Notes under the pieces: generated by a model
Told to the model about the DNA's origin: nothing
Database searches by the model: none
The model's input: the letters and a program-made list of their open reading frames with translations, nothing else
Made by a program: the position numbers and the translations under genes
Assembly: GCA_964453135.1 (NCBI GenBank)
Contig: CAYVOL010000003.1
Span: 33,976-97,975 of the forward strand
Direction of reading: 5' to 3'
DNA from: an uncultured Candidatus Saccharibacteria bacterium
GTDB lineage: Bacteria; Patescibacteriota; Minisyncoccia; UBA6257; UBA9933
Length of the DNA stretch: 64,000 bases
In this document: positions 3,092 through 59,778 of the stretch, piece after piece
How positions within the stretch are numbered: position 1 is the first letter of the stretch
Layout: each line of letters starts with the position of its first letter

Positions 3092-3151
3092 ATTGATCCG
3101 GAATTTTGAAACGTGGAACTTGAAATTTGAAATTTCAATATTGAAATCTTT

Positions 3152-4435
3152 ATGAATTTCACTAAATCGCAAAGCGTTATTATTTTAATCGGCGTTGCCG
3201 TTGTTTTGTTTTTCATTTTGGGGCTTTTGGGAATTATTCCTGTTTTTAAGACACCGCAGGACCGCAAGCCGGTTCAAGAAATCAGTCTTTCCATTTGGGG
3301 AATTGACGATAAATCTTTTTTTGAAGGAGTTTTGGATAAATTTAACCAATCTAACAGAAATATATCCATAAGCTACCGGTCTTTTGACGAGGCTTCTTAC
3401 GAGAACGCTCTCTTAAACGCCTTAGCGACCGGACAAGGGCCGGATATTTTTATGTTTCACCGCAGTTGGCTAAAAAAACACGGCGACAAAGTAGCCATAC
3501 CGTCAGCCACTCAGATTTCTTTGCCTGTTTTTCGCCAGCTTTTCCCCGATATTGCGGAAAGAGATTTTGTTTCCGACGGGAAAATTTATGCCCTGCCTTT
3601 GTATTTAGACACGGTGGCGATGTTTTACAACAAGGATATTTTTAATAATAAGGCCATCGCGGTTTTGCCGAAAACCTGGGACGATTTCCGTCTTTTAATT
3701 CCCTATTTGACCGAATACGACGTTAACCATCAGATTGTTAAATCCGCCGCCGCTGTCGGCGGGTCGGGAAAATCAATCAGCAAAGTCAGCGACCTTTTAA
3801 GTGCCCTGATGATTCAAAGCGGTTCGTCCATAGCGGATAGTTCGCGGATAAATAATTTTGACGCTCCGGCTGTTAAGGCGTTTGATTTTTATCTTCAATT
3901 CGCCAACGCCGGAAATGCTTACTACACTTGGAATGACGGGCTGGGCAATTCTCTGGATTCTTTTTCTGCCGCGAAAACCGCCGTAATTTTCAACTACGCC
4001 CGTTCTTTGGCGGATATTAAACGGAAAAATCCTTTTCTTAATTTTGCCGTTGCTCACTTGCCGCAATTTAATCCTTCCCAGCCGAAAAATTACGCCGACT
4101 ATTGGGGGTTGGCGGTGTCTAAACAAAGTCTTCATCCCGAGGAAGCGTGGAATTTTGCCATTGACCTTACTACCAACGCCAATACTAACTCAATGTATTT
4201 ACAGTCCAGCGGTTTGCCGCCGGCTTTAAGGACTTTGATCAATCAATACCAAAACGATGCTAATTTGAGTGTTTTCAGCCGGCAAGCGCTAAGCGCTTAC
4301 GCCATTTCCTATTCCGATAAAAATAAATTTGATTCCGTTATCTCCGATATGATAGAAGCTGTGCTGACCGGCAAGGCGAGCCAATCAGACGCCCTGGATC
4401 AAGCCCGGTTGAAATTAGCCGCCGGGGTTCAGTAA
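3152..4435 (+). CDS. membrane-anchored extracellular solute-binding protein family-1-like protein
   Basis: N-terminal TM anchor followed by a roughly 390-aa periplasmic-binding-protein-like region (PDIFMFHRSWL..., LYLDTVAMFYNKDIF). No cognate ABC permease or ATPase lies nearby. Confidence 0.5.
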   Translation: MNFTKSQSVIILIGVAVVLFFILGLLGIIPVFKTPQDRKPVQEISLSIWGIDDKSFFEGVLDKFNQSNRNISISYRSFDEASYENALLNALATGQGPDIFMFHRSWLKKHGDKVAIPSATQISLPVFRQLFPDIAERDFVSDGKIYALPLYLDTVAMFYNKDIFNNKAIAVLPKTWDDFRLLIPYLTEYDVNHQIVKSAAAVGGSGKSISKVSDLLSALMIQSGSSIADSSRINNFDAPAVKAFDFYLQFANAGNAYYTWNDGLGNSLDSFSAAKTAVIFNYARSLADIKRKNPFLNFAVAHLPQFNPSQPKNYADYWGLAVSKQSLHPEEAWNFAIDLTTNANTNSMYLQSSGLPPALRTLINQYQNDANLSVFSRQALSAYAISYSDKNKFDSVISDMIEAVLTGKASQSDALDQARLKLAAGVQ

Positions 4436-10689: not shown

Positions 10690-11250
10690 ATGAAAAAAAA
10701 TCTACAACCCAAAGCTCAAAGCTCAAAGCTCAAAGCTAGTCCGAGAGGTTTTTCCATAGTGGAACTTATAATGGCCACGGCTTTGTTTGTTATTATTCTT
10801 TCTATTATAGTCAGCATTTATTTGCGTTCTTTAGAGACGCAAAAAGCCACCCTCCATCTGATAGGAGCCAATGACAATCTGGTTTTAGCAGTGGAAGAAA
10901 TAGCGCGCGACATAAGGAACGGCACGGATTTTAACGAAGGCGACCCGAATTGTTCCAATAACGGCTTTGGCTCGGGATTGGAGTTTACTATTTATACGGG
11001 AGAAAAATTCTGTTATCGTTTTAACGGCTCCGACGCAATTGAAAAAGGAGTTTTTAATACATCAACCGGCAACTTCGATTTTCTAAAAATTACTTCCGAC
11101 GATATTCAAATCAGCGATTTCAAGATACAGAAGATTTCAGGGTTTTCCGTGCCGCGGGTCGTTGTTTTTTTCGCCGTGTCGTCCAAGAACGGCGTTTTGC
11201 GGGGAGTAAAGACTTACATTCAAACCACAGTCAGCGCGAGAAACATCTAA
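10690..11250 (+). CDS. pseudopilin / minor pilin (prepilin-type)
   Basis: Leader is MKKNLQPKAQSSKLKASPRG|FSIVELIMATALFVIILSII. The leader is encoded in part by a 7-nt tandem array (caaagct x4). Confidence 0.7.
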   Translation: MKKNLQPKAQSSKLKASPRGFSIVELIMATALFVIILSIIVSIYLRSLETQKATLHLIGANDNLVLAVEEIARDIRNGTDFNEGDPNCSNNGFGSGLEFTIYTGEKFCYRFNGSDAIEKGVFNTSTGNFDFLKITSDDIQISDFKIQKISGFSVPRVVVFFAVSSKNGVLRGVKTYIQTTVSARNI

Positions 11251-11332: not shown

Positions 11333-11776
11333 ATGACTAATTATTTACTGCAAAACCTAATAAAACGTTATACGTTATATGTTATACGTTATACGGACAA
11401 GAGGGGGCAGTTGATGATTTTAACGGTTTTGCTTTTGGGCGGGGTTATTATCGGCGTTACTTCCGTGGTAAGTTCATTGATTGTGTATAAAGTCCGTCAG
11501 GCAACCGACGTGGCTGATTCGGCCAAGGCCATTTTCTCCGCGGACGCTGGCCGGGAATTTGAGCTTTATCGCGCCAAAACGGGGTTAGGCGTGCCTTGCC
11601 CTTCTTTCTCCAACGGAGCGAGTTTTCATACCGAGGTAACATACGATGATTCTTCCGGCTTGCTCACTCTTTTTTCCAAAGGAAGCGGAATTAACAACAA
11701 CCGCATTTGGCACGAATTTTTCGCCTCTTCCACTATCGCCACTTCCAGCTATCCCATTAATAAAGATTGCCAATAA
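11333..11776 (+). CDS. hypothetical membrane protein, possibly a GspK/PilX-like minor pilin lacking Glu5
   Basis: The sequence ...DKRG|QLMILTVLLLGGVIIGVTSVV has a Gly before a hydrophobic helix but no Glu5. The start is ambiguous: the ORF opens at 11267, with ATGs at 11324, 11333 and 11414. A 7-nt x4 array (acgttat) lies in the putative leader region. Confidence 0.35.
   Translation: MTNYLLQNLIKRYTLYVIRYTDKRGQLMILTVLLLGGVIIGVTSVVSSLIVYKVRQATDVADSAKAIFSADAGREFELYRAKTGLGVPCPSFSNGASFHTEVTYDDSSGLLTLFSKGSGINNNRIWHEFFASSTIATSSYPINKDCQ
11365..11396 (+). repeat. heptanucleotide tandem repeat (acgttat x4) in the 5' region of a pilin-like ORF
   Basis: Direct reading of acgttat acgttat atgttat acgttat. 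Confidence 0.8.
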
Positions 11777-13591: not shown

Positions 13592-15388
13592 ATGAAAGTG
13601 AAAAATATGTTGTGCCATAAAAAGATATTATTATTGAAAAAACCGCTTTTCTGGAGCGGGCTGTTTTTTGCCGTAATGGCGGTGATGTTTGTTTCGAGCA
13701 TAGATTGGAAAAATACCGCCCAATCCCAGGTAGCCAACTCTGTTTTTGGAAGCGGAACGCCGCACTTTCTGGCCAAGTGGGTGGTGGCAACTAATACCCC
13801 GACTTTAAGAATAGATCCTGCTTCGGCTATAACTCTTGTCGGTTCCACCACGCAATTCCGCGCGTACTACGACCCGGACGGTCCGGGCGGTCCTTCGGCT
13901 GAACAAGACGTCACGGCATCTTCTGTCTGGTCATCGGATAATACTTCTGTTGCCACGGTCAACGGCTCCGGTTTGGCGACAAGCGTCTCTATGGGAACAG
14001 CCCAAATCAGCGCAACGTATTCCGGCTTAAGCGCCTCGGCTTCTTTGACGGTTACCGGGCCTGCCTTCAGGATTGCTCCTGCGTCAGCTACCACTCTTGT
14101 CGGTTCCACTACGCAATTTCGCGCTTACTACGATTCCGACGGATTATTATCCGGCCCCGAAATAGAAGTGACCGCTTCGTCCAACTGGTCTTCTAGCAGC
14201 TCTTCCGTTGCTGCAATAGACAGTTCCGGTTTAGCCACCAGCATTGCCATTGGCACGACCCAAATTGGCGCTTCTTATACTAATCCTTCCGGTGTGACAT
14301 TTACTTCCACCGCTGTTTTGAGAGTCGTTGCTTTTGAGGTCAGGCCACTCTCGGCATCGATTATCACTGGTGCCACTACGTCTTTTAATTCCTGGTTCTA
14401 TAACGGAGCCAGCTGGAGCAATGTTATTTCTAGTTGGTCATCGGCCAGCACCACTATTGCCACAATCAGTCCATCTTCGGGAAGAAGGACCGTTGCTACC
14501 GGTAAAAATAACGGCACAACCCAGATTAAAGCCAGATATAGCAGCGCGATAGGGTCTCTTAACGCAGCTGCTGATTTGACAGTTGGAGTCGCCGGTCCTG
14601 TTAATGGCGTTTGCGGTCCGGCTAACGGCGGAACTTACGCCACTACTCCGCCGGCGGGCGACTTATGTTCCAACGGCTCTGCTTCGTCGGTCTCCGGCAG
14701 CGGCACTCCCACTTGGACCTGGACTTGCAATGGCTCGGGCGGCGGGACCAACGCTTCTTGCTCGGCCACCAACAGCGGCATACCGGCAAATACGCCTCCC
14801 AGCGCATCAAGTTTGTCTATAAGCGTCGCTGCCGGCACGAGCGATAATTTAACCGCGGATTGCAAAATCAGAGATAGCGCTGTTTTCAACTGGAGCTTCT
14901 CCGACCCTGACTCCGGAGATTCTCAAAGCGCTTTTCAAATAAAAGTTTATTCTGACGGCGCGTTAACTAATTTAGCGCTGGATACAAACAAAATTACTTC
15001 TTCTGTTTCCTCTTATTCTACCTCAACTTTATCCGCGGGAACTTATTATTGGAAGATGATGGTGTGGGATAACCATAATGCCTCGTCTTCCTGGGTTATA
15101 GCCCCGTCTTCTTTCACTATCACAGAACAACAAGCGATTAACTTCACCTGGTCCCCCACAACTCCTATATTCAACAGCACGGTTACTTTTACTGCCAACA
15201 GCACTATTCCCATTGCTTCCTACTACTGGCAATTTATCAGCGGCAATCCGTCTGCAGTTTACGGCAATCCGGCAACCACTACTTTTTCCAGTATTGGTTC
15301 AAAGGCGATTACCTTGATTCCTACAACCTCAGGGGGGAAAACCTGTTCTATAAGCCGTAATGTTGTTGTGGGCGGAGGCGGAGAGTAA
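13592..15388 (+). CDS. large secreted surface protein with three Big_2-type Ig-like repeats, a Cys-rich module and a C-terminal PKD/Fn3-like domain
   Basis: N-terminal TM/signal. Three about 95-aa repeats (ITLVGSTTQFRAYYD...SASLTV), the first two nearly identical at DNA level. Then a CGPANGG...C...C...C segment and an NFTWSPTTPIFNSTVTFTANS PKD-like motif. Confidence 0.7.
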   Translation: MKVKNMLCHKKILLLKKPLFWSGLFFAVMAVMFVSSIDWKNTAQSQVANSVFGSGTPHFLAKWVVATNTPTLRIDPASAITLVGSTTQFRAYYDPDGPGGPSAEQDVTASSVWSSDNTSVATVNGSGLATSVSMGTAQISATYSGLSASASLTVTGPAFRIAPASATTLVGSTTQFRAYYDSDGLLSGPEIEVTASSNWSSSSSSVAAIDSSGLATSIAIGTTQIGASYTNPSGVTFTSTAVLRVVAFEVRPLSASIITGATTSFNSWFYNGASWSNVISSWSSASTTIATISPSSGRRTVATGKNNGTTQIKARYSSAIGSLNAAADLTVGVAGPVNGVCGPANGGTYATTPPAGDLCSNGSASSVSGSGTPTWTWTCNGSGGGTNASCSATNSGIPANTPPSASSLSISVAAGTSDNLTADCKIRDSAVFNWSFSDPDSGDSQSAFQIKVYSDGALTNLALDTNKITSSVSSYSTSTLSAGTYYWKMMVWDNHNASSSWVIAPSSFTITEQQAINFTWSPTTPIFNSTVTFTANSTIPIASYYWQFISGNPSAVYGNPATTTFSSIGSKAITLIPTTSGGKTCSISRNVVVGGGGE

Positions 15389-15419: not shown

Positions 15420-15453
15420 AAACTCCCCCGCTAAAGCGGGGGAGTTTATTTGG
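15420..15453 (+). terminator. rho-independent terminator
   Basis: Perfect 12-bp GC-rich stem aaactcccccgc / gcgggggagttt with a taaa loop, followed by atttggt, 30 nt after the stop of the Big_2 gene. Confidence 0.8.
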
Positions 15454-15487: not shown

Positions 15488-18079
15488 TTGTTTTTGTTAT
15501 TTAATATATTCAAGTGTTATTCAATGATTTACAACCATCAGAAAATTGAAAAGAAGTGGCAAGCGTTTTGGGAGAAGAGCGGAATTTATAGAATTAAGAA
15601 AAACAGAAATAAAAAGAAATTTTATGTTCTGGATATGTTTCCTTATCCGTCCGGCGATGGGCTCCATGTGGGGCATCCCCGCGGCTACATTGCCACTGAT
15701 GTGGCGGCGCGTTTTAAAACAATGAAGGGGTATGAGGTTTTACATCCTATGGGCTGGGACGCTTTCGGGCTTCCGGCCGAAAATTTCGCCTTAAAAAACA
15801 AAATTCATCCGCGATTGGCTGTTGCTAAAAATATCAAAAGGTTTAAAAATCAGCTTAAAATGTTCGGTTTTACTTATGACTGGAGCCGCGAGATAAACAC
15901 CACGGATGAAAAATATTATAAATGGACGCAATGGATTTTTCTTCAAATGTTTCACGCCGGTTTGGCTTACGAATCTTTTGAGCCGATTAATTGGTGTCCT
16001 TCGTGCAAGACCGGTTTGGCCAATGAAGACTTGGAAGACGGACGCTGTGAGCGTTGCGGCAGTATTGTGGAAAAAAAGCCGTTAAGGCAATGGGTTTTGA
16101 AAATGACCGCTTACGCCGAACGCCTGCTTAAAGATTTGAAATTTCTTGATTGGCCACTTTCTATTGTTGAGCAGCAGAAAAACTGGATAGGAAAATCGGA
16201 GGGAGCGCTCGTAGAATTCAAGATTCAAGATTCAAGATTCAAGATTGATGTATTTACCACGCGGGTTGATACGATTTTCGGATGCACTTATGTGGTGGTG
16301 GCGCCGGAACACGAGGTTATTAAGAATTTAACATTTAGAATTAAGAATTTCGGGGAAGTAGAGAGATATATTGGGGAAGCGAAGAAAAAATCTGATTTGC
16401 AGAGAACTGATTTGGCCAAAGAAAAAACCGGAGTTGAATTGAAGGGCGTGGAAGCGATTAATCCGTTTAACGGCGAAGCGGTGCCTGTTTTTGTCGCGGA
16501 TTACGTTTTGGCGGATTATGGAACCGGCGCGGTAATGGCAGTACCGGCGCATGACAAACGTGATTACGATTTTGCTCTAAAATACGGTTTATCAATTAAA
16601 CGGGTAATTGTTTCAAATAATACACAAGTTCAGAATGATAATTCCAAATCACAAAATTTAAAACAAGCTTTTGAAGATGACGGGATTTTGGTTGATTCGG
16701 GAGATTTCACCGGTTTGATTTCGGCTAGGGCGCGGCAAGAAATGGCAAAGTGGCTGAAAAAAAATAAATTGGGGGAAGAAAAGACAAATTATAAAATGCG
16801 CGATTGGGTTTTCAGCCGCCAAAGATATTGGGGAGAGCCTATTCCGCTAATTTTTTGTCCAGCGTGCAAAGAATCAATCCAAGATCCAAGATCCAAGATC
16901 CAAGATTCAAGATTCAGTCAGGGCGAATTGTTAAACCCCGGCTGGATAGGGGTGGAAGAAAAAAATTTACCCGTAAAACTGCCGGAGGTGAAATCTTATG
17001 AGCCATCCGGCACGGGCGAATCTCCTTTGGTAAATATTAAAAAATGGGTGAATGTGAAATGTCCTAAATGTGGCGGAAAAGCCAAACGGGAAACCAATAC
17101 TATGCCGCAGTGGGCCGGTTCCTGCTGGTATTATTTGCGTTTCATTGATCCGAGAAATAATAAGGCATTGGTTGATAAAAAAAAGGAAAAAGAATGGATG
17201 CCGGTTGATTTATACGTGGGCGGGGTGGAACACGCCACCCGCCATTTGCTCTATGCCCGTTTTTGGCACAAATTTTTATACGATATCGGAGCGGTTTCCG
17301 CCAAAGAACCTTTCAAAAAGCTCGTCAATCAAGGGTTGATTTTGGCGGCTGACGGCCGCAAGATGTCCAAACGATGGGGAAATGTGATAAATCCGGACGA
17401 TATGATTGAGCAATTCGGCGCGGACTCTTTGCGTTTGTACGAAATGTTTTTAGGTCCTTTTGCGCAGCATATTGCCTGGAATATGGACGGGATAAGGGGA
17501 ATGAAAAGATTTTTGGACAGAATTTATAAAACAATATCAAAACCTAAAAGTCAAAGCCCGAAACTCAAAGTTAAAAATCAAAAATTAGAGAGATTACTGC
17601 ATCAAACTATTAAAAAAGTGACGGAAGATATCGAAGGTTTTAGGTTTAACACGGCGATTTCTTCTTTAATGATTTTATTTAACGAAATGGAACGAGAAAA
17701 CAGCGGATTAGAAATAAAACATTGCGAGTTATTTCTAAAATTACTGGCGCCGTTTGCTCCGCATATCGCAGAGGAAATATGGCAAAATTTGCGACGCAAT
17801 AATAGCGGTAAAAACGCGCGCCGCACCGTTTTCCAAAGCATTCATTCAGAGTTATGGCCCGGATATAACAAGAAATTGATTGAAGAAGAATTATTTGAAC
17901 TGGTGGTGCAAATTAATGGTAAAGTAAAAGACAAAGTTAAAGCCCATGCCGGTATTTCCCAAAAAGAAGCGGAGGAAATGGTTTTTGCTTTGCCTAAAAT
18001 CAGAGAGCTGTTAAAAGGAAAATCCGCGCGGAAAATTATTTTTGTTCCCGGAAGGTTGATCAATCTCGTTATCGCGTAA
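15488..18079 (+). CDS. leuS: leucyl-tRNA synthetase
   Basis: HIGH motif (HVGHPRGY) and KMSKS motif (KMSKRWGN), with a CP1 editing region. 863 aa. It contains two in-frame 7-nt tandem arrays. Confidence 0.95.
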   Translation: MFLLFNIFKCYSMIYNHQKIEKKWQAFWEKSGIYRIKKNRNKKKFYVLDMFPYPSGDGLHVGHPRGYIATDVAARFKTMKGYEVLHPMGWDAFGLPAENFALKNKIHPRLAVAKNIKRFKNQLKMFGFTYDWSREINTTDEKYYKWTQWIFLQMFHAGLAYESFEPINWCPSCKTGLANEDLEDGRCERCGSIVEKKPLRQWVLKMTAYAERLLKDLKFLDWPLSIVEQQKNWIGKSEGALVEFKIQDSRFKIDVFTTRVDTIFGCTYVVVAPEHEVIKNLTFRIKNFGEVERYIGEAKKKSDLQRTDLAKEKTGVELKGVEAINPFNGEAVPVFVADYVLADYGTGAVMAVPAHDKRDYDFALKYGLSIKRVIVSNNTQVQNDNSKSQNLKQAFEDDGILVDSGDFTGLISARARQEMAKWLKKNKLGEEKTNYKMRDWVFSRQRYWGEPIPLIFCPACKESIQDPRSKIQDSRFSQGELLNPGWIGVEEKNLPVKLPEVKSYEPSGTGESPLVNIKKWVNVKCPKCGGKAKRETNTMPQWAGSCWYYLRFIDPRNNKALVDKKKEKEWMPVDLYVGGVEHATRHLLYARFWHKFLYDIGAVSAKEPFKKLVNQGLILAADGRKMSKRWGNVINPDDMIEQFGADSLRLYEMFLGPFAQHIAWNMDGIRGMKRFLDRIYKTISKPKSQSPKLKVKNQKLERLLHQTIKKVTEDIEGFRFNTAISSLMILFNEMERENSGLEIKHCELFLKLLAPFAPHIAEEIWQNLRRNNSGKNARRTVFQSIHSELWPGYNKKLIEEELFELVVQINGKVKDKVKAHAGISQKEAEEMVFALPKIRELLKGKSARKIIFVPGRLINLVIA
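16217..16246 (+). repeat. heptanucleotide tandem array (caagatt x4) inside leuS
   Basis: The sequence gaa ttcaagattcaagattcaagattcaagatt gat encodes FKIQDSRFKID. Confidence 0.85.
16879..16915 (+). repeat. heptanucleotide tandem array (ccaagat x4 + tcaagat) inside leuS
   Basis: The sequence ccaagatccaagatccaagatccaagattcaagattcag encodes IQDPRSKIQDSRF. Confidence 0.85.
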
Positions 18080-21141: not shown

Positions 21142-21251
21142 AGGAGAAAATCTTAAAAACATAAAACTTGAACCTTGGAACTTGGAACTCGTCTCAATTA
21201 TTTATCCCCAGTTTCAAGATTTATATTTTATGTTCTGTGATTATTACTCTA

Positions 21252-22364: not shown

Positions 22365-22576
22365 GAAATCCGAGCGTTGTTTACATTTCGGAATATTGAC
22401 CACTGGCGTTCCCGACCTTACTGTCATTCTGAGTCCGCCAGCTGGCGGACGAAGAATCTTACGGAGATCCTTCGCCCCGCCACAGCAGGGCTCAGGATGA
22501 CAAAAACGGTCAGGATGACCAAAATGTTCAGGATGACAATAAAAAACTACGACGAAAAGCGTAAATAACGCTATGA
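22365..22576 (+). repeat. dispersed ~200-nt structured element, copy 1 (candidate ncRNA / MITE-like)
   Basis: Shares gaaatccgagcgttgtttacatt...tgtcattctgagtccgccagctggcgg...gatccttcg...cccgcc...ggctcaggatgacaa...gtaaataacgct with 26668-26878 and 56461-56655. Confidence 0.6.
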
Positions 22577-23552: not shown

Positions 23553-23554
23553 GA

Positions 23555-23640
23555 AACTTGAATCTTGAAACTTGAAAATTGAATCGCGCAACTTGAATCT
23601 TGGAACTTAGATCTTGAATCCTGATACTTGGCACTTAATA
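23555..23640 (+). repeat. 7-nt-period tandem array (NNCTTGA units) between convergent genes
   Basis: Units read aacttga atcttga aacttga aaattga ... aacttga atcttgg aacttag atcttga atcctga tacttgg. Confidence 0.8.
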
Positions 23641-26667: not shown

Positions 26668-26878
26668 GAAATCCGAGCGTTGTTTACATTTTGGAATGTT
26701 GACTATTGGGGTGTGCCCGACGGCCCCACTCCTGCCATTCTGATCCGCCAGCCGGCGGAGAAGAATCTTAAGAGATCCTTCGTCCGCCCCGCCATGGCGG
26801 GGCGGGACTCAGGATGACAATAAAAACGTTTAGGATGACAATTAAAAAACAGCGATGAAAAGTGTAAATAATGCTATG
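26668..26878 (+). repeat. dispersed ~200-nt structured element, copy 2
   Basis: See copy 1. It has the same termini and internal palindromes (ccgccagccggcgg; ccccgccatggcgggg). Confidence 0.6.
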
Positions 26879-29096: not shown

Positions 29097-29921
29097 ATGA
29101 TTCAAATGTTTCACTCATTTTTTAAAAGAATAATTCAATTTTTGCTGAAATGGATGGCGAAGGTTTATCTTTGGGAAACGCGGCCTCATGTGATAGTAAT
29201 AAGCGGAACAACTGGTAGATTTTGGATAAAAGAAAAAATCGTGGAAGCTCTCGGGGAGACCAGTCATTTTGTCAGGGCCAACAAGAAAAATTTTAACGCG
29301 GAACTCGGGCTCCCGCTCTCTATTTTGGATTTGCCTTCGGGCAACGGATCTTTTTGGGGCTGGATTAGCGTTTTGCGGCAGGGGGTTTCAGTGATTACTC
29401 ACACTATCAGACGTTCGCGCACGCGCAAGTCTTTTTATCTGGTTTTGGAGATGGCAATTGATCGGCCGGAAAATATGAATTATTTGCTGAAAATCGTTAG
29501 GCCTAACGCCGTTATTTTAACCAACATCACCATGATTTATCAGGAAAATTTTGAGGACTTAGACGAAATTTCCGGAGAATACCGCCAATTGGTGAAATCT
29601 CTGCCTTGGGATGGAATTTTGATTCTTAATAATGACGACGAACGGATAAAAAACTTAAGCCAATTTTTTGACGGAAAAACTATTTTTTACGGATTGAAAG
29701 ACGGAGCTCATTTTCGGGCCATGGATATTATAAGAGAGATAGACGGACAGCGATTTAAGATTGAGGTCAACGGCAAGGAAAAAGAGATTTTTCCGCTTAA
29801 AATTAATCGTTTTGGTCGGCATCATGTTTACGCGGAGCTGGCGAAAAAAATTATTTTAGATAATTTTAAGGCGCCGCAGAGAGATTTTTTCGGAAAAATT
29901 TTAGACGTGGAAAGTCACTAA
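29097..29921 (+). CDS. Mur-ligase-family protein (MurF-like), short and with a degenerate P-loop
   Basis: VIVISGTTGRFWIKEKIVEAL aligns with the Mur ligase GTNGKTT P-loop but reads GTTGRF. ...NFNAELGLPLSIL and ...PNAVILTNI match Mur ligase central-domain blocks. It is only 274 aa and the C-terminal domain is absent. It sits next to mraY, as murF does in dcw clusters. Confidence 0.45.
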   Translation: MIQMFHSFFKRIIQFLLKWMAKVYLWETRPHVIVISGTTGRFWIKEKIVEALGETSHFVRANKKNFNAELGLPLSILDLPSGNGSFWGWISVLRQGVSVITHTIRRSRTRKSFYLVLEMAIDRPENMNYLLKIVRPNAVILTNITMIYQENFEDLDEISGEYRQLVKSLPWDGILILNNDDERIKNLSQFFDGKTIFYGLKDGAHFRAMDIIREIDGQRFKIEVNGKEKEIFPLKINRFGRHHVYAELAKKIILDNFKAPQRDFFGKILDVESH

Positions 29922-29945: not shown

Positions 29946-31745
29946 TCACGCCACCTCCTGTTTGTAGCACTCATCGCAGTAGATGATCTCGGGTCGGTCA
30001 GGGGAATAGGAGGTTTGGAAGGTATTGGGACAGGGATTGGTTCCGTGGAAGTGCTTTGATGTATTCTGGTATTGGTTCTGGTTTTTCAGTTGAGAGGTCT
30101 GGCCTTGGCATTCGCATTGTCTTTCCCAGAGTTTCAAAGGGTTTCTTTGTTTGATTCTCTGGTAATGGCGGCAGTTGGGGCAAAGTCTGGGGAGGGGAAG
30201 ATTCATCTTCCGGTAGAAATCAAGCTCGGGTTTGATGATTTTGAAGGCTTTGGTGCATTGTTCGTTGCAATGGGAGGCGCTATGGGAACATTCTATGACT
30301 TGGCCTACTATGGAGTCTTCTACATCCTTTATATGGTCGGGGAGAGATTCTGAGGGGAGGTCTATTTTGAGGTCTCTATTGGCTTCTTCTTTCCACCTAT
30401 ATCCCTGGCTTTCTGCTTGTTCTTGGGTTAGAGGGAAGTATTCCTGAGCAATGGTTTCGTTGTAGGAGAAGGGAGACAATTCCGGAGGGAAGAATTCTCC
30501 GTACTTGTATATTCTTCCTTGTTTATCTATATAGGGAAGAGTATTCATATGATCTATTATTCTGGGGACTAGTTTTTCATATTCTTCCTTGGTGTATTGC
30601 TTGTTGAGGATACAATACTGCTTGTTGCGGAGGCCTACGCAGCCGAAGAGGTGGGAGGAATTTTGACACCACATTGAATATTGTGTGTCATAAATATCGG
30701 GCACAAGCGGCTTGCTTCCCCACATATTCCAGCAAAAATGCGTGTTATACCCAAGACCTTCTACGAGTTCATACAAAAGATCTCCTCCAGCTATCGCCGT
30801 ATCGAAGCAGTCACGACTTTTATAGAAAAAAATAAGCTGGCAATAAGAACAATCTTCCAAATTTTGGCAGACAAATGAATGTTTGGTGTTTTTACAATGC
30901 TTAAGATAATCGCCGGAAACATTGTTGTTGTTTCTTCCGTGATAGAATTTTTTAGGAAATTGCAGTTGAAATTTTTGCAAGTCATTGTTGAATTTCAAAG
31001 TGCCGTTATAAGAGCCAAGGTCAAACGTTTTCAATTTTTGGAAATATTCTTCCCGGGAGTAGGGATGGTTGAAAATGTGGTATTCTTTGTTTTTTAAGCT
31101 AACGCAACCGAAACAATCGTGGCAATTAATCAGATTTTTGGAAAAGAAAACATTACGACACTCACTGCATTCCGAAGAAAAGAAAACATTGTGGCATTTT
31201 TTGCAGTCGTAGAGCCAATAGCATAATTCTGAACTTTGAACCTCGTCAATATCAAGGGAATCTTTTGTTTCGCTTATGGTTTCTCCATAAGCGATGTTTT
31301 CCGAATTGCCTATATTGAAAGCAAGGTAACAATTTTTGATATTAACCGCTTGATTGCAATAATCGCTGTTGATGTCATTTAAGGCGCCGCGGTGCGGCCA
31401 GGGCATTTTTAACATAGACTCTTTTATTTGTTCAAAAAATGACCTGTTGAAATCATAATCTTTCCCGTATTCCATTGCGTCCCATTTGTCCGACCAAAAA
31501 TAGTCTTCGTGGTAAACTTTGACTGGAGAGTCAGGGGAATACATGGCGATAACTTCTTTGTCTTCTCCTTCAATTTTCCGTTTGTATAAAGTCCGGGTGT
31601 TGCGGAAATTCATTCTTCTAGCCGCCCGGCATTCCGGACAGAACGTCGGCGCCGGAACTTTGATTTTGTTGTAAAACTCAAAATCCTCCGGTTTTATGAT
31701 AAAGTTTTGTTTGCAATTTTGGCAAGATTTTTTTTCGGGATTCAT
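29946..31745 (-). CDS. cysteine-rich protein of unknown function with duplicated terminal zinc-ribbon-like motifs
   Basis: 599 aa with about 40 Cys and many Trp/Tyr/His. N-terminal FIIKPEDFEFYNKIKVPAPTFCPECRAARRMNFRNTRTLYKR and C-terminal FKIIKPELDFYRKMNLPLPRLCPNCRHYQRIKQRNPLKLWERQCEC are clear internal homologs. The central region has repeated CxxC...VFFS units. It is the only minus-strand gene in a + strand block. Confidence 0.5.
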   Translation of the reverse strand: MNPEKKSCQNCKQNFIIKPEDFEFYNKIKVPAPTFCPECRAARRMNFRNTRTLYKRKIEGEDKEVIAMYSPDSPVKVYHEDYFWSDKWDAMEYGKDYDFNRSFFEQIKESMLKMPWPHRGALNDINSDYCNQAVNIKNCYLAFNIGNSENIAYGETISETKDSLDIDEVQSSELCYWLYDCKKCHNVFFSSECSECRNVFFSKNLINCHDCFGCVSLKNKEYHIFNHPYSREEYFQKLKTFDLGSYNGTLKFNNDLQKFQLQFPKKFYHGRNNNNVSGDYLKHCKNTKHSFVCQNLEDCSYCQLIFFYKSRDCFDTAIAGGDLLYELVEGLGYNTHFCWNMWGSKPLVPDIYDTQYSMWCQNSSHLFGCVGLRNKQYCILNKQYTKEEYEKLVPRIIDHMNTLPYIDKQGRIYKYGEFFPPELSPFSYNETIAQEYFPLTQEQAESQGYRWKEEANRDLKIDLPSESLPDHIKDVEDSIVGQVIECSHSASHCNEQCTKAFKIIKPELDFYRKMNLPLPRLCPNCRHYQRIKQRNPLKLWERQCECQGQTSQLKNQNQYQNTSKHFHGTNPCPNTFQTSYSPDRPEIIYCDECYKQEVA

Positions 31746-31785
31746 AAAAATAAATTAGTTTATTGCGCGATATTTTATTATAACG

Positions 31786-31834
31786 ATTTTATCAGAAATT
31801 CCCCCCCCCGCAACAATAAAATGGGGATAACTTT
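31786..31834 (-). promoter_or_regulatory. promoter of the Cys-rich gene, with AAAGTTATCCCCAT upstream motif and a C9/G9 homopolymer in the spacer
   Basis: The minus strand reads aaagttatccccattttattgTTGCGGggggggggaatttctgaTAAAATcg. The motif is at 31821-31834, the -35 at 31809-31814, the G9 tract at 31801-31809 and the -10 at 31786-31791. Confidence 0.45.
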
Positions 31835-31929
31835 TTATAAAACATCAAGTAAACTAACTCATTTATAATTTCTTTATTTTTATTTTAATAGGGAATAGTT
31901 AATTTATAAGGCATTATTGGCGATGCTTT

Positions 31930-33462
31930 ATGAATAATTTTTCCAAAGTTTATTCCGCTGAGCTGGAAGGAATTGAAGCCAAGCTGATTGAAGTGGAGAC
32001 CGACATTAACGTCGGGCTTCACGCTTTTAACATTGTCGGGTTGGCGGACAAGGCGCTTAATGAGGCGAAAGAAAGGGTAAACGCCGCTTTGAAAAATTCC
32101 AACATCAAGCCGCCTAACAGGGAGAATCGTAGGATTACGGTGAACTTGGCGCCGGCGGATATCAAAAAAGCCGGTTCGCAATATGATTTGGCGATTGCCT
32201 TGGGCTATCTTTTGGCCACCAGGCAGATTAAAAGTTTTGACGCGAAAGATAAAATTTTTATCGGTGAACTTTCTTTAGAGGGGAATCTTCGTCCGATAAA
32301 CGGAGTTTTAGCTATTGCCCGCTTAGCGAAAAAATTAAATTTTCAGCATCTTTTTGTCCCCAAGGAAAACGCGCGGGAAGCGGCGATCGTGCGCGGCATC
32401 TCGGTTATTCCCGTATCTAACTTGAACGAACTCATCAATCATCTAGAAGGAAAAGAAGAGGTTATTTCTCAGAAAGAGACGCAATTAGATTTTAACTGGC
32501 CGTCTGAAGGTTTGGACATTTCGGAAATCAAGGGCCAGGAAAATGCGAAAAGGGCTTTGATTATCGCGGCGGCCGGCGGACACAATATTTTAATGCGCGG
32601 ATCTCCTGGCGGCGGAAAAACTATGCTGGCGCAGTCCTTGACTTCCATTTTGCCTCCTTTGTCTTTGGAAGAATCTTTGGAGGTGATTCAAATTTACAGC
32701 AGTATTAATTTTTTAGCCGGTCAGTCTTTCATTTCCCGGCGGCCTTTTCGCGCGCCGCATCACACTGCTTCCGCGGTTTCTATTGTGGGCGGAGGCGTAA
32801 ATCCGCGGCCGGGAGAAGTCAGTTTGGCGCACAGAGGAGTTTTGTTTCTGGATGAGATTCCTGAGTTCCGCCGCGATATTTTGGAATCGTTAAGGCAGCC
32901 ATTGGAGAGCGGAGAGGTTTGTATTTCCCGCGCCAGGGGTGTTTTGAATTTTCCCGCGCGTTTTTCTTTGGTGGCGGCGATGAACCCGTGCCCTTGCGGG
33001 TATTACGGCGACGCGGAAAAAGTCTGCCAGTGCAGCGCCGCGGAAATTTTCCGCTATCAAAAGAAAATCTCCGGTCCTTTAATGGACAGAATTGATATTC
33101 AGATTAACGTGCCGCGGGTGAAGACGGAGGATTTGATCCAGAAAAAAGAAGAAAATATTACCGGAAAGATACGCGAGAAAATAATGAAAACGAGAGAGAG
33201 GCAAAGAAAAAGATTCGCCGGGTTAGAAAAGTCAATTTATTTGAATTCCGAAATGTCTTCGCGTTTAGTTGACGAAGTCGTTCAATTGGATTCTGATAGC
33301 CAGAAATTTTTGAAAAATATATTGGACAAGACTTTTTTGTCCGCCCGCGGGTATTACCGGCTTTTGAAAACCAGCCGCACTATCGCCGATTTGGAAGAAT
33401 CGGCGAGTGTTTTGATTTCTCATCTGACAGAGGCGTTTCAGTATAGGATAAGGGAGGGGTAA
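31930..33462 (+). CDS. comM: YifB/ComM-family Mg-chelatase-like AAA+ ATPase
   Basis: N-terminal Lon-like ChlI domain, Walker A GSPGGGKTMLA, Walker B VLFLDEIPEF, and a C-terminal Mg_chelatase_C block. 510 aa. Confidence 0.85.
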   Translation: MNNFSKVYSAELEGIEAKLIEVETDINVGLHAFNIVGLADKALNEAKERVNAALKNSNIKPPNRENRRITVNLAPADIKKAGSQYDLAIALGYLLATRQIKSFDAKDKIFIGELSLEGNLRPINGVLAIARLAKKLNFQHLFVPKENAREAAIVRGISVIPVSNLNELINHLEGKEEVISQKETQLDFNWPSEGLDISEIKGQENAKRALIIAAAGGHNILMRGSPGGGKTMLAQSLTSILPPLSLEESLEVIQIYSSINFLAGQSFISRRPFRAPHHTASAVSIVGGGVNPRPGEVSLAHRGVLFLDEIPEFRRDILESLRQPLESGEVCISRARGVLNFPARFSLVAAMNPCPCGYYGDAEKVCQCSAAEIFRYQKKISGPLMDRIDIQINVPRVKTEDLIQKKEENITGKIREKIMKTRERQRKRFAGLEKSIYLNSEMSSRLVDEVVQLDSDSQKFLKNILDKTFLSARGYYRLLKTSRTIADLEESASVLISHLTEAFQYRIREG

Positions 33463-35422: not shown

Positions 35423-36223
35423 ATGGGCCAAAAATTAGGACAGCATTTTTTGATAAATAAAGAGAAACTGCAAAAAATTGTTGGCGCTTTGGAATTAGAG
35501 CAGGGGGATTTGGTTTTTGAAATCGGTCCCGGGCATGGGGAGTTGACAGAAGCCATCAAGTATCAAGTGTCAGGTGTCAATATTATTGCGATTGAAAAAG
35601 ACCGGGAATTGGCAGCGGCTCTAAAAGGAAAATATAAAGATGATTTACGGGTAGAAATTGTTGAAGGAGACGCATTGAAAATTTTGTCGGAATTACTCCA
35701 AAGGCATAATCTAAAAGATAAAAGCTATAAAATTGTTGGCAACATTCCTTACTATATTACCGGACATTTATTGCGGATTTTGGGCGAGTTAAAGAACAAG
35801 CCAGCGAGAATTGTTTTGACCATTCAAAAAGAAGTGGCGGAAAGAATATGCGCGGCGCCTCCGAGAATGAATTTATTGGCGGCCAGCGTTCAGTTTTGGG
35901 CTGAGGCGGAAATAATAGATTACATTAGCCGTAAAGATTTTTTACCGGCGCCCGAAGTTGACAGCGCTATTATTGTTTTGCGCCCGCGGCGCGCGGCTTT
36001 CACGCAAATTGGCGACGAACATTATTATCGGTTCATAAAAATTTTATTCCAGCATCCGAGAAAAACTTTATTGAATAATCTCAAATCTCAAATCTCAAAT
36101 CTCAAAAATAAGGAAGAAATTATTAAGGAATTAAAAAAAATTGGAATAAATCCGCAGGATCGGCCGCAGGATTTAGGTCTGGATAATATTATTGAGCTGG
36201 CAAAGAGTTTTGGTTATAATTAG
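35423..36223 (+). CDS. rsmA: 16S rRNA (adenine1518/1519-N6)-dimethyltransferase
   Basis: The GQHFL start, the SAM-binding EIGPGHGELT and the NIPY motif are present. It contains an in-frame aatctca x4 heptamer array (36083-36110). Confidence 0.9.
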   Translation: MGQKLGQHFLINKEKLQKIVGALELEQGDLVFEIGPGHGELTEAIKYQVSGVNIIAIEKDRELAAALKGKYKDDLRVEIVEGDALKILSELLQRHNLKDKSYKIVGNIPYYITGHLLRILGELKNKPARIVLTIQKEVAERICAAPPRMNLLAASVQFWAEAEIIDYISRKDFLPAPEVDSAIIVLRPRRAAFTQIGDEHYYRFIKILFQHPRKTLLNNLKSQISNLKNKEEIIKELKKIGINPQDRPQDLGLDNIIELAKSFGYN

Positions 36224-45267: not shown

Positions 45268-47013
45268 ATGGAACAAGTTAAAATACCGCAAGCCTATACT
45301 CCCGGAGAGCGCGATGTAGAAAATATTATCGCGCCGGCCGCTATAGAAATTAATCCCAACTACCTACGCTTGGGGGATATTTTTTCCAAAACTCTTTTTC
45401 TTTTCACTTATCCGCGCTATCTGGCAAGCGGCTGGTTTGATTCTTTGGTGAATATGCCTGAGCTTCTTGATTTGGCAATTTTTGTCCATCCTATTGATAC
45501 GGCGGAAGCTTTGAAAAAACTGCGCAGAAAAGTTACGGAAATTGAGGCGCAGTTGGCGGAACGGGCGGATAAGGGAATGGTGCGCGACCCGCAATTGGAA
45601 ACAGCCTACACTGACGTGGAAAATTTAAGAGACCAGCTTCAGCAGGCGCAGGAAAGATTGTTTGATGTTAGCGTGTATATCACCATTTACGCCAATTCGC
45701 TGGAAGAACTTAACGCCGCGGAAGAAAAATTGGTGAATCTGCTGGACAGCCAGCTGATTTACGCCAAGCCCACGATGTTCCAGCATATTGACGGATTTAT
45801 TTCCACTTTGCCTTTGGCGCAGGACAAACTTTTTATCCATACTCCTTTTAACACCCAGCCGCTTTCTTCTTTTTTCCCTTTTGTTTCGGCAGACCTTACT
45901 TCTGAGGAAGGAATTTTATACGGCGTCAACGAGCATGATAATTCGCTGGTGATTTTTGACCGTTTTTCTCTGGAAAATTACAATCAGGTTATTTTTGCTA
46001 AAGCCGGCGCGGGAAAATCATTTACCGCGAAGGTGGAAATTTTAAGGTCTCTGATGTCGGACATAGACGTTTTGGTTATTGATCCGGAAAACGAATATCA
46101 GCGCTTGGCGGATTCCATGGGAGGAAGCGTAGTGAAAATTTCTCTTACTTCCAAGACATCCATTAACCCTTTGGATATCCCTATTGTTCCTAAAGGGGAA
46201 GACCCGGCCGATGTTTTTAAGTCGCATATTTTGAATTTAGTGGGCCTTTTGAAATTGATGCTGGGGGAGATTACTCCCGAAGAGGACGCTATTTTGGACC
46301 GCGCTATTGCCGAAACTTATTTTTCCCGGGGCATTACCGCTGACGTGAAAGATTTTTCCAAGCTGGAGCCGCCGCTTTTGGAAGATTTAGAGACGGTTTT
46401 AAATAATATTGAAGGAGGAAAGAGCATGGCGTCCCGTCTTTATAAATACACCAAAGGAACTTACGCCGGTTTTGCCAACCGTCCTACCAATGTAGAGGTG
46501 AATAACAGAATGGTTGTTTTTGAAATCCGCGATTTGGAAGAAGAACTGCGTCCGATGGCGATGTATATCGTGCTTAATTTCGTGTGGAATTTAATCCGTT
46601 CGCAGCTGAAAAAACGGATTATGATTATTGACGAGGCTTGGTGGATGATGAAATATCCGGACAGCGCCGCTTTTCTTTTTAGCTTGGCGAAAAGATGCCG
46701 CAAGTATTATCTGGGGCTGACCACCATCACCCAGAACGTGGAGGATTTTCTCAATTCTCCTTACGGCCACCCGATTATCACCAACTCCTCTTTGCAGTTG
46801 TTGTTGAAACAGGCGCCGGCCGCGGCGGACATTATCACGCGCACTTTCAGCTTGAGCGAAACGGAAAAAAACTTTTTGCTTCAGGCGGAAGTAGGTGAAG
46901 GAATATTCTTGGTGGGGTTAAAGCACGTGGTTTTGAAAATTTTAGCTTCTTATTTTGAAGAGCGCATCATTACCACCAATCCGGAAGAATTATTGGAGAT
47001 GGGGGAGGGATAA
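45268..47013 (+). CDS. virB4: VirB4-family T4SS ATPase (C-terminal ATPase portion)
   Basis: Walker A AKAGAGKSFTAK and the VirB4-type Walker B IIDEAWWMM, with a C-terminal motif block (TQNVEDF). Confidence 0.75.
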   Translation: MEQVKIPQAYTPGERDVENIIAPAAIEINPNYLRLGDIFSKTLFLFTYPRYLASGWFDSLVNMPELLDLAIFVHPIDTAEALKKLRRKVTEIEAQLAERADKGMVRDPQLETAYTDVENLRDQLQQAQERLFDVSVYITIYANSLEELNAAEEKLVNLLDSQLIYAKPTMFQHIDGFISTLPLAQDKLFIHTPFNTQPLSSFFPFVSADLTSEEGILYGVNEHDNSLVIFDRFSLENYNQVIFAKAGAGKSFTAKVEILRSLMSDIDVLVIDPENEYQRLADSMGGSVVKISLTSKTSINPLDIPIVPKGEDPADVFKSHILNLVGLLKLMLGEITPEEDAILDRAIAETYFSRGITADVKDFSKLEPPLLEDLETVLNNIEGGKSMASRLYKYTKGTYAGFANRPTNVEVNNRMVVFEIRDLEEELRPMAMYIVLNFVWNLIRSQLKKRIMIIDEAWWMMKYPDSAAFLFSLAKRCRKYYLGLTTITQNVEDFLNSPYGHPIITNSSLQLLLKQAPAAADIITRTFSLSETEKNFLLQAEVGEGIFLVGLKHVVLKILASYFEERIITTNPEELLEMGEG

Positions 47014-51856: not shown

Positions 51857-52726
51857 ATGCCCGAGTTGCCGGAAGTTCAAACAATTATTGATGATTTGAA
51901 TAAGAAAATTAAAGGCGAAATTATCGCTGATTTTTGGAGCGACTGGAAAAAATCCCTTAAAGCGATTTCTCCGGAGCAATTTAGGCGCGCTGTAAAGAAT
52001 AAAAAAATTTTAAGAGCGCGCCGCAAGGGAAAAAATATTTTTATTGACTTGAGCGGCGGGAAAACTATTTATCTTCACCTTAAAATGACCGGCCATCTTT
52101 TAGTTAAGCCGGCCGGTAAAATTTCGGATTTGGAAAAAAAATATTTTGCCGAAAAAGTTAATCAGTATATTCACCATATTTTTTATTTTAGAAGCGGGAA
52201 AATCATGACCTTTTCCGATTTAAGAAAATTCGGGAAAATTATTTTAGTGCCTACTTCACAGGCGGAGGATTTGCCGGAAATAAAAAATTTGGGGGAAGAC
52301 GTTTTATCTCCAAGTTTTACATTGGAGAAGTTTAAAAATCTTTTGGCGAAAAAAAGAAAACTTTCTCTGGTTGTTTTTTTAGCGGACCAGCAAATTTTAA
52401 GCGGCATCGGCAACATATACCGCAGCGAAATTTTATTTGAAGCCGGCGTTTTGCCATGGAGGAAAGCCGGCGAACTGGAAGAAGAAGAAATTGGAGATGT
52501 TTATCGTGCCATTGGAAAAATTTTGAAAAAAGCGATAAGATTGCGGGGCACCTCCGACAGCGATTATCGGGACACCTCCGGCACTCCCGGAAAATTCCAA
52601 AATGTTTTGAGGGTTTACCGCAGAGAAGGCGAGAAATGTTTGGTATGTAAGAAGGAAATTAGGAGGGTAAAAATCGGAGCGAGAAGCGTCTTTTATTGCC
52701 CGCGATGCCAGAATCGTGAATCCTGA
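51857..52726 (+). CDS. mutM: formamidopyrimidine-DNA glycosylase
   Basis: It starts MPELPEV, giving the catalytic Pro2 after Met removal. It has the H2TH region and a C-terminal zinc finger CLVCKKEI...CPRCQ. The start was moved from 51836 to the Fpg-type ATG. Confidence 0.85.
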   Translation: MPELPEVQTIIDDLNKKIKGEIIADFWSDWKKSLKAISPEQFRRAVKNKKILRARRKGKNIFIDLSGGKTIYLHLKMTGHLLVKPAGKISDLEKKYFAEKVNQYIHHIFYFRSGKIMTFSDLRKFGKIILVPTSQAEDLPEIKNLGEDVLSPSFTLEKFKNLLAKKRKLSLVVFLADQQILSGIGNIYRSEILFEAGVLPWRKAGELEEEEIGDVYRAIGKILKKAIRLRGTSDSDYRDTSGTPGKFQNVLRVYRREGEKCLVCKKEIRRVKIGARSVFYCPRCQNRES

Positions 52727-52772
52727 ATCGTAAATCTTGAATCGTGAATCGTGAATTCTAACCATTCAATCA

Positions 52773-56460: not shown

Positions 56461-56655
56461 TGCCGCAGACATAGCGAAGCGAAGAATCCATCCTGTCATT
56501 CTGAATCCGCCAGCTGGCGGAGAAGAATCTCGTATTTATGCGATTGCGAATATGAGAGATCCTTCGTCCCCCGCCATGGCGGGGGACGAAGGATGACAAT
56601 TAAAACAGGATGACCATAAAAAACAACTATAAAAAGTGTAAATAATGCCTGGATT
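56461..56655 (+). repeat. dispersed ~200-nt structured element, copy 3
   Basis: It shares tgtcattctgaatccgccagctggcgg...gatccttcgtcccccgccatggcggggg...aggatgacaa...gtgtaaataatgc with copies 1 and 2. Confidence 0.6.
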
Positions 56656-58389: not shown

Positions 58390-58521
58390 ACCATAAATCT
58401 TGAATCGCGAAACTTAAATCCCGAACCCTATTTTAATCTTGTTTATTTTTCCGTTTATCCCCCCATGGGGCGCCTGCTTAAGATGAAATCTAAAAAAGAA
58501 AAAATTAAAAACGAGAAGAAG

Positions 58522-59778
58522 ATGCTTATTCAAAGCGTGAAGGGGATGCATGACATTCTTCCCGACGAGCAGTTGCTGTGGGAAAAAATAAGGCAGACTG
58601 CCCGAAATATAGCCAATGATTATAATTTTTCCCGTTTGGACACGCCTGCGGTGGAATCGGCCGATCTTTTTGAAAGAAGCGCCGGGCTTGACTCCGATAT
58701 CGTCGAAAAACAAATGTATTTTGTGAAATCCAAGGGAAACGAACGTTTGGTTCTGCGTCCTGAAGGCACTGCTCCGGCGGTGCGTTCTTATTTTGAACAC
58801 GGCCTGGCGCGCATGGGGCTTCCTTTGAAAATTTATTATTTCGCGCCGATGTTCCGTTATGAACAGCCGCAGGCCGGAAGATACCGCCAGCATCACCAGT
58901 TGGGCTTTGAAATTTTAGGCGGAGAAAACGACCCTATTTACGACGCCCAAATTATTTCCGTTATCATCCGTTTTTTGGAGGAGCTGAAAATAAAAAACGC
59001 CTCTGTCCACATCAACAGCATTGGCTGTTTAAAATGCCGCGCGGCTTACTCCAAAAAATTGGAGGCCTATTATAGAAAATATCTCAAAGAAATTTGCAAA
59101 GATTGCCAAAAGCGGCTGGGAAAGAATCCTTTGCGTCTTTTGGATTGTAAAAACGAAAGATGCCAGATTGTTAAAACTGAAGCGCCGATTATTCTTAATT
59201 TTATCTGCGAATCATGCAAAAGGCATTTTAAGAGCGTTTTAGAATATTTAGACGAATTGAAAATCGCTTATTCCATCAATTCGCATTTGGTGAGAGGATT
59301 GGACTATTACAACCGCACAGTGTTTGAAATTTTTACCGAGGGATTTTCTTTCGCCATTGCCAGCGGAGGACGTTTTGATTATCTGGCGGAAATGCTGAAA
59401 TTGAAAAAGTTAAACGCCATGGGCGGGTGTTTGGGAATTGAAAGAGTGGCGGAGGCGATTAAAAGCGCGGGAAAACTGAACTTAACGAAGACTCCGTCCA
59501 AGGTTTTTTTTATTCATATCGGCGACGAGGCGAAAAAGAAGGGGCTTGTTTTGGTTGACGCTTTGCGCCGGGCCGGCGTGAAAACAGGCGAATCATTCGG
59601 GAAGGAATCGCTCAAGGCGCAGTTAAAAATTGCCGACAAAGAAGGGTCTTTGCTGGCATTGATTTTGGGACAGAGAGAAGTCTTTGAAGAAAGCGTTATT
59701 ATAAGAGATATGACTAGCGGCGCCCAGGAAACCATTGCCTTATCCAAAGTCATAGAAGAAGTTAAAAAAAGATTATGA
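58522..59778 (+). CDS. hisS: histidyl-tRNA synthetase (with Cys-rich insertion)
   Basis: Class II motif 1, motif 2 (FRYEQPQAGRYRQHHQLGFE) and motif 3, with an anticodon-binding C-terminus. The insertion domain carries 4 Cys pairs (CLKC...CKDC...CKNERC...CESC). Start chosen at MLIQSVKGMHD. Confidence 0.9.
   Translation: MLIQSVKGMHDILPDEQLLWEKIRQTARNIANDYNFSRLDTPAVESADLFERSAGLDSDIVEKQMYFVKSKGNERLVLRPEGTAPAVRSYFEHGLARMGLPLKIYYFAPMFRYEQPQAGRYRQHHQLGFEILGGENDPIYDAQIISVIIRFLEELKIKNASVHINSIGCLKCRAAYSKKLEAYYRKYLKEICKDCQKRLGKNPLRLLDCKNERCQIVKTEAPIILNFICESCKRHFKSVLEYLDELKIAYSINSHLVRGLDYYNRTVFEIFTEGFSFAIASGGRFDYLAEMLKLKKLNAMGGCLGIERVAEAIKSAGKLNLTKTPSKVFFIHIGDEAKKKGLVLVDALRRAGVKTGESFGKESLKAQLKIADKEGSLLALILGQREVFEESVIIRDMTSGAQETIALSKVIEEVKKRL

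Follow-up and report, generated by a model that had tools for sequence, protein, structure and literature searches.

In the window (the whole stretch of DNA that was analysed, 64 kb in length), a cysteine-rich gene on the minus strand and a ComM-like gene on the plus strand stand back to back. They share an intergenic region in which a run of nine C is located. The features are as follows.

31746..31929, no strand: divergent intergenic region of 184 bp, delimited on the ORF map, shared by the Cys-rich gene (minus strand) and the ComM-like gene (plus strand).
31801..31809, no strand: C9 homopolymer (G9 on the minus strand), by direct reading; the same in the Logan assembly.
29946..31745, minus strand: Cys-rich gene, 599 aa with 33 Cys, zinc-ribbon-like CxxC pairs at both ends.
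31930..33462, plus strand: ComM/YifB-type Mg-chelatase-like AAA+ gene, with the Pfam domains Mg_chelatase, ChlI and Mg_chelatase_C.

The letters at 31800-31810 are T-CCCCCCCCC-G, with T at 31800 and G at 31810 as the flanks. The nine consecutive C of the first-pass annotation (G9 on the coding strand) are borne out by this direct reading. On the strand of the Cys-rich gene (minus) the run is a G9; it is situated 121-129 nt 5' of the ATG of the ComM-like gene. The Cys-rich gene is the lone minus-strand gene amid a long series of plus-strand genes on the ORF map, and its promoter must therefore be within the 184-bp region. That region must hold the promoters of both divergent genes. The predicted start codon of the Cys-rich gene is secure, because an in-frame stop stands 4 codons before the ATG and the N-terminus, MNPEKKSCQNCK, lines up with the starts of 25 homologues. 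An N-terminal extension that would make the C9 coding is ruled out by the same stop and by the conservation of the start in homologues. A mechanical ORF of 53 aa (31707..31868, plus strand, TTG start) crosses the run (…RNSPPRNNK…). The TTG start and the overlap with the Cys-rich 5' end on the other strand make this ORF unlikely to be a gene; if it were one, the C9 would be an intragenic frameshift site.

Within the 64-kb window the C9 is the sole G/C run longer than 6. Runs of 6 are five in number, at 12744, 15332, 36461, 49913 and 58459, and the longest A/T runs are of 8. The survey for other G/C tracts of at least 8, proposed earlier for the genome, was run on the 64-kb window and gave none besides the C9. 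Multiplicity of the kind seen at contingency loci is absent from the window, which lacks a second long G/C run and so shows neither a pattern nor a family of such loci. The GC content of the window is 42.4%, so that "AT-rich genome" was an overstatement. For the rarity null, the C9 was masked and the window was simulated with Markov chains of orders 1, 3 and 5. The probability that 64 kb contains one or more G/C runs of length 9 or above is 0.34 at order 1, 0.13 at order 3 and 0.02 at order 5. The 9-mer, earlier called conspicuous, is unremarkable against base and dinucleotide composition (order 1) and merits the word against the genome's own depleted run lengths (order 5). Rarity hinges on the null model: the C9 is an outlier only against the genome's own run-length distribution. 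Scaled to a genome of ~1 Mb, the order-5 figure corresponds to ~0.3 chance G/C runs of at least 9.

The related Patescibacteria DNA (684 kb, 80 loci) contains no G/C run of at least 9, three of 8 and seven of 7; all 10 runs of 7-8 fall within ORFs. The C9 is the longest G/C run, and the sole intergenic run of at least 7, in the ~750 kb of Patescibacteria DNA examined. In this genome selection appears to act against long G/C runs, because the maximum elsewhere in the window is 6 and low-order models predict longer ones. If they are counterselected, the survival of the C9 could reflect selection for it. Hypermutability is expected of G/C tracts of about 7-8 residues or more, a range to which the C9 belongs. 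Another run, a C6 at 58459-58464, stands directly 5' of an ATG at 58465 (…TTATCCCCCCATG). Apart from the C9, it alone among the G/C runs of at least 6 lies outside the long plus-strand ORFs, though inside a mechanical minus-strand ORF (58414..58896).

Tandem repeats with a period of 7 are the commonest repeat class, with 9 of the 24 arrays in the window and 17 of 103 in related Patescibacteria loci. Their positions in the window are given below.

3101-3147, intergenic: period-7 array.
21165-21189, intergenic: period-7 array.
23553-23630, intergenic: period-7 array.
52711-52756, intergenic: period-7 array.
10710-10737, inside an ORF: period-7 array.
11365-11395, inside an ORF: period-7 array.
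16216-16246, inside an ORF: period-7 array.
16877-16913, inside an ORF: period-7 array.
36077-36106, inside an ORF: period-7 array.
62873-62925, inside an ORF: period-7 array.

Some arrays are located just 5' of start codons (e.g. GAAACTT-like x11). Perfect arrays of 4-5 copies occur inside long ORFs, two of them in the leucyl-tRNA synthetase gene (ATTCAAG x4.4 and ATCCAAG x5.3). Since 7 nt cannot be divided into whole codons, a change of copy number would shift the frame. A literature search brought up no report of SSR phase variation or of heptamer repeats in Patescibacteria.

The window has seven occurrences of a 9-mer, GGATGAC(A/C)A, all of them on the plus strand; they come as 2-3 copies spaced ~17-21 nt apart in three intergenic regions.

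22495-22539, plus strand: GGATGAC(A/C)A cluster, 5' of the gene starting at 22674.
26812-26841, plus strand: GGATGAC(A/C)A cluster, 5' of the gene starting at 26922.
56591-56616, plus strand: GGATGAC(A/C)A cluster, 5' of the gene starting at 56703.

A regulator common to the three regions may bind at the 9-mer, or the 9-mer may be a small repeated element. An ORF of 274 aa at 29097-29921 (plus strand) matches only the Mur ligase middle domain, adjoins MraY and falls far short of the usual MurF or MurE length; possibly it represents a Mur ligase gene that is truncated or split. Three further products are candidate parts of the surface machinery, of a pilus or conjugation-like type, that episymbiotic CPR bacteria typically have.

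4486-6195: T2SSE type II/IV secretion ATPase.
45268-47013: TraG/VirB4-like P-loop ATPase.
13592-15388: Big_2 Ig-domain protein.

The organism was detected in a single sample, SRR5161805, a metagenome taken at the tailings dam of a Brazilian copper mine (PMC7327174). The Logan contig SRR5161805_65825 carries the ComM-like gene, overlaps the window over 309 bp with complete identity, C9 included, and passes through the run without breaking. The dominant tract length is therefore C9 in one sample, with two assemblies in agreement. The hallmark of a phase-variation switch is a tract length that differs from cell to cell or from strain to strain. An exact-protein look-up with the Cys-rich protein gave no other contig; the Cys-rich and ComM-like proteins are both singleton clusters among about 15 billion proteins. 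JGI metagenome contigs were scanned for both flanks of the C9 with a variable gap, and for the right flank alone, as contigs might break at the tract; neither scan gave a match. For archaeal MAGs obtained from SRR5161805 and SRR5161795, paired-end reads were co-assembled with metaSPAdes, a description that concerns those archaeal MAGs (PMC7327174). MutS and MutL were not found among the large ORFs scanned in the 64-kb window.

Homologues of the Cys-rich protein number more than 8000, and practically all are in Patescibacteria. The family, seen here in the window and in loci L008, L025, L028, L038, L046, L061 and others, is about 600 aa in length and without a Pfam or NCBIfam model. CxxC pairs are invariant at both ends, and the motif C..CFGC..LRNK.Y.I.N is repeated twice. 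No signal peptide or membrane segment is present in the Cys-rich protein (maximum 19-residue hydropathy 0.88, N-terminus hydrophilic). Pfam gave a sub-threshold treble-clef zinc finger only, the NCBIfam search no match, and the PDB sequence-profile search no relative. The AlphaFold model (pLDDT 76.7, pTM 0.74) found only non-significant matches in the PDB with Foldseek, to left-handed beta-helix acyltransferases. The predicted features of the product point to a soluble protein that binds zinc and not to a surface antigen. The parallel drawn by the first-pass annotation with phase-variable surface proteins is unsupported, as signal peptide and membrane segment are lacking, a weak negative for a protein without functional assignment. 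Neither Pfam, NCBIfam, PDB nor hydropathy indicates a surface, host-interaction or restriction-modification role for the controlled gene, which is likewise a weak negative.

Conservation was checked in 82 related loci (80 GTDB loci and two ENA contigs). None of the 91 regions upstream of homologues in these loci contains a G/C run of at least 7. A G8 in locus L011, 214 bp upstream of a homologue, was rejected as a comparable tract; it lies inside the upstream ORF. The closest homologue is 58% identical and not syntenic, and the genomic neighbourhood of the homologues varies without synteny; hence no orthologous promoter is available for comparison, and no regulatory architecture is conserved. 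In the loci compared, the C9 is not a conserved feature of the Cys-rich family. Paralogues of the Cys-rich gene often stand as two or three in tandem. Several are preceded by stretches that encode only the first ~15-20 family residues (…ET(R/K)xCQNCK…F.I.PE) and then diverge.

L002, ~1135-1245: partial-N-terminus stretch.
L013, ~4130-4238: partial-N-terminus stretch.
L025, ~3890-3998: partial-N-terminus stretch.
L038, ~2110-2219: partial-N-terminus stretch.

These stretches may be remnants of paralogue recombination or small zinc-ribbon ORFs.

The candidate promoter of the Cys-rich gene, in its best sigma-70-like reading TTGCGG/TGaTAAAAT, reads, on the minus strand, ...TTGTTGCGGGGGGGGGAATTTCTGATAAAATCGTTATAATAAAATATCGCGCAATAAACTAATTTATTTTTATG. 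Promoter-like elements of both strands are listed below.

31808..31813, minus strand: -35-like TTGCGG, 3/6 to TTGACA; the last two G belong to the C9/G9 run; below the threshold of the promoter scanner.
31786..31794, minus strand: extended -10-like TGaTAAAAT, with the hexamer at 31791-31786 (5/6), 16 nt 3' of TTGCGG.
31777..31782, minus strand: perfect TATAAT, alternative -10, at -37..-32 from the Cys-rich ATG.
31864..31869, plus strand: TATAAT, the strongest -10 candidate of the ComM-like gene; 9/12 together with AAAACA at 19 nt.
31817..31822, plus strand: TAAAAT, weak mirror-image candidate, with CAGAAA (31793-31798, 3/6) at 18 nt, 8/12, no TG.

The TAAAAT hexamer at 31791-31786 takes up -46..-41 relative to the Cys-rich ATG. 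The perfect TATAAT starts 3 nt downstream of it, and a second downstream TAAAAT lies at 31777-31772 (minus strand). The G9 run gives the last two bases of TTGCGG and the first seven bases of the 16-nt spacer; if the TATAAT (31782-31777) were the -10, the run itself would take the -35 position. The first-pass annotation had placed the run in the 17-nt spacer of the only candidate promoter. The formal geometry is indeed present, with the run between a -35-like and a -10-like hexamer, but the last two G of TTGCGG are the run itself and the -35 reaches only 3/6. The distance from TTGCGG (31813-31808) to TAAAAT (31791-31786) is 16 nt, not 17, and the candidate is not the only one, since TATAAT and the second TAAAAT follow within 15 nt downstream. 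A consensus promoter scanner reports no site at TTGCGG/TAAAAT. A -35 match of at least 3/6 at spacing 16-18 has a chance of ~55%, and ~1/3 of the positions in the intergenic region are at most 18 nt upstream of a minus-strand -10-like hexamer of at least 5/6. Because such matches are frequent by chance, the location of the run in a spacer carries little independent weight, and the TTGCGG match is no better than chance. With the G9 between the two hexamers, slippage by one residue in either direction would nonetheless set the spacing at 15 or 17 in place of 16.

The promoter style of the clade was surveyed by aligning the DNA upstream of 208 genes that belong to the window and to related loci (L001-L083). 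In this survey, -10-like hexamers cluster with their ends 7-10 nt 5' of the ATG, a pile-up that suggests widespread leaderless mRNAs in these Patescibacteria; extended -10 promoters are likewise suggested to be widespread. Of 56 candidate promoters, 24 (43%) have TGn before the -10; for background hexamers the count is 4 of 25. The 56 candidates show a weak -35 signal, in which the first T alone attains 59%, at a spacing of 17 nt. Shine-Dalgarno-like sequences look rare among the upstream regions inspected. The putative element TGaTAAAAT agrees with this pattern. For extended -10 promoters of E. coli, the -35 and its spacing matter little.

On balance, and with modest confidence, the C9 is regarded as an incidental, lineage-specific homopolymer in a core-promoter region, slippage-prone and not a selected switch. 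It would most probably have arisen by replication slippage in unconstrained intergenic DNA, and its position in the core-promoter region of the Cys-rich gene would be happenstance. Transcription of the gene would be driven mainly by the extended -10 TGaTAAAAT. Occasional slippage by one residue, which any G9 tract undergoes, would lead to spacers of 15, 16 or 17. Since the -10 is of the extended type, such slippage is argued to modulate expression of the Cys-rich gene at most, not to turn it on and off. The incidental reading is adopted because the run is unique in the window and absent upstream of 91 homologues, the -35 is at chance level, the -10 is of the TGn type with alternative -10 boxes beside it, the product is not a surface one, two assemblies give C9, and ~0.3 chance runs are expected per ~1 Mb. 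Against it stand the probability of about 0.02 per 64 kb, the status of the C9 as sole intergenic run of at least 7 in ~750 kb, and a site where a change of length alters the -35/-10 spacing.

The last three points would fit a slipped-strand switch or "volume control", which is possible and considerably less likely than an incidental homopolymer. Here G8, G9, G10 and G11 would give spacings of 15, 16, 17 and 18, each with its own expression level, and heritable, reversible heterogeneity of the porA kind would result. The near-optimal 16 nt between the two hexamers, a length of 9 within the hypermutable range of known systems (porA 9G-11G; PMC3639595), the outlier status under the order-5 model, the absence of a second intergenic long G/C run from about 750 kb of related DNA and the confinement of the promoter of a lone minus-strand gene to 184 bp all speak for it. 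It is opposed by the agreement of two assemblies of one sample on C9, by a weak -35 at chance level that the promoter scanner does not report, by other -10 candidates nearby and by an extended -10 that probably lessens the dependence on spacing (in part knowledge from E. coli). Nor does the 64 kb contain another long G/C homopolymer, the product look surface-like, any homologue examined carry a run upstream, or the literature found report SSR phase variation for Patescibacteria.

A bolder version of the switch is unlikely. In it the C9 would be the first simple-sequence contingency locus in Patescibacteria (CPR), a slippage "volume control" on a member of the Cys-rich zinc-ribbon family, possibly bidirectional with the ComM-like gene. 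If true, bet-hedging by hypermutable promoters would also occur in ultrasmall environmental episymbionts. Should the run vary, promoter-spacer phase variation would be extended from host-adapted pathogens to an environmental CPR bacterium, and a first regulatory handle would be gained on a family of more than 8000 members without known function. If the run does not vary, which is the likelier case, it is merely an unusual homopolymer and carries little information.

It is improbable that the C9, or an imperfect inverted repeat around it, is a regulator-binding site or a structural DNA element of fixed length. An inverted repeat does enclose the run (31787-31806 / 31823-31842; 15/20 complementary, TTTTAT..CCCC / GGGG..ATAAAA), and its CCCC and GGGG arms pair in the DNA fold. 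The same 400 bp contain 23 comparably good inverted pairs, the motif is not found a second time in the window, conservation elsewhere is absent, and no Rfam family was matched across the whole window. The fold is no better than shuffled sequence (z = 0.84; 158/200 shuffles at least as good), and a hairpin or terminator at the C9 was rejected on this ground. A perfect GC-rich hairpin is found elsewhere, at 15423-15444 (CTCCCCCGC-TAAA-GCGGGGGAG followed by TTTATTT), after the Ig-domain gene 13592..15388. It is, as predicted from its sequence, a textbook intrinsic terminator, in which G5/C5 runs thus serve as stem halves.

An artefact of sequencing or assembly, in the length of the C9 or in the run itself, is highly improbable. 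Homopolymers are error-prone, and an intergenic site gives no reading-frame check; set against this, an independent assembler (Logan SRR5161805_65825) returns the identical 309 bp with C9. Both assemblies probably come from the same reads, so that a systematic error is not fully excluded.

Least credible of all is a bidirectional switch in which the C9 would lie in the overlapping spacers of TTGCGG-16-TAAAAT (minus strand) and CAGAAA-18-TAAAAT (plus strand) and co-regulate the Cys-rich and ComM-like genes: the two TAAAAT hexamers are mirror images, one on each strand, at distances of 9 and 7 nt from the run, which the plus-strand spacer (hexamer 31817-31822) would also include, but -10-like hexamers are common in the AT-rich 184-bp spacer, the plus-strand candidate scores 8/12 without TG at 108 nt from the ComM ATG, and the better TATAAT at 31864-31869 (9/12) is nearer that gene, with the C9 ~55 nt upstream of it and outside that core promoter.

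The closest known systems are porA and, named beside it, the poly-C tracts of opc and fetA, all of Neisseria meningitidis. In porA a poly-G tract lies between -35 and -10, and variants of 11G, 10G and 9G give graded expression (PMC3639595). Defects of mismatch repair raise mononucleotide switching 100- to 1000-fold (PMC3639595). Large-scale prediction of phase-variable genes in N. meningitidis makes use of the observed length polymorphism of orthologous repeats (PMC5084427). Like the porA tract, the G9 stands between -35-like and -10-like hexamers, at a 16-nt spacing that is one step from the 17-nt optimum, and its length of 9 is in the hypermutable range of the 9G-11G tracts (PMC3639595). The two differ in that 9G, 10G and 11G variants of porA have been seen both among strains and inside single strains, in correlation with the protein level, and in that the porA product is an outer-membrane antigen, whereas the Cys-rich product is without export signal. 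Further differences from porA are a -35 of only 3/6, a -10 of the extended type, a host belonging to environmental Patescibacteria and no other long G/C tract in 64 kb.

In Haemophilus influenzae, TA repeats in the divergent promoters of hifA and hifB affect both genes. The repeat described here is likewise located in a divergent intergenic region and could touch two back-to-back promoters. The hif repeat is a dinucleotide with mapped promoters, in contrast to a homopolymer with a weak, distant plus-strand candidate.

Genomes of Campylobacter and Helicobacter hold two to three dozen G/C tracts, ~one per 50-60 kb, mostly at genes for surface structures. Both intergenic and intragenic poly-G/C contingency loci are described for these genera (PMC8355987). 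The present locus resembles theirs as a G/C run of at least 8 in a genome of low to moderate GC, and may resemble them in a lack of mismatch repair, by which such runs would be hypermutable; it differs in that the window has one tract.

Incidental intergenic homopolymers of bacteria are matched in the single occurrence of the C9, in its lack of conservation in relatives and in the absence of an associated repeat family. Unlike them, the C9 is longer than any other run in ~750 kb of comparable DNA and occupies a core-promoter position.
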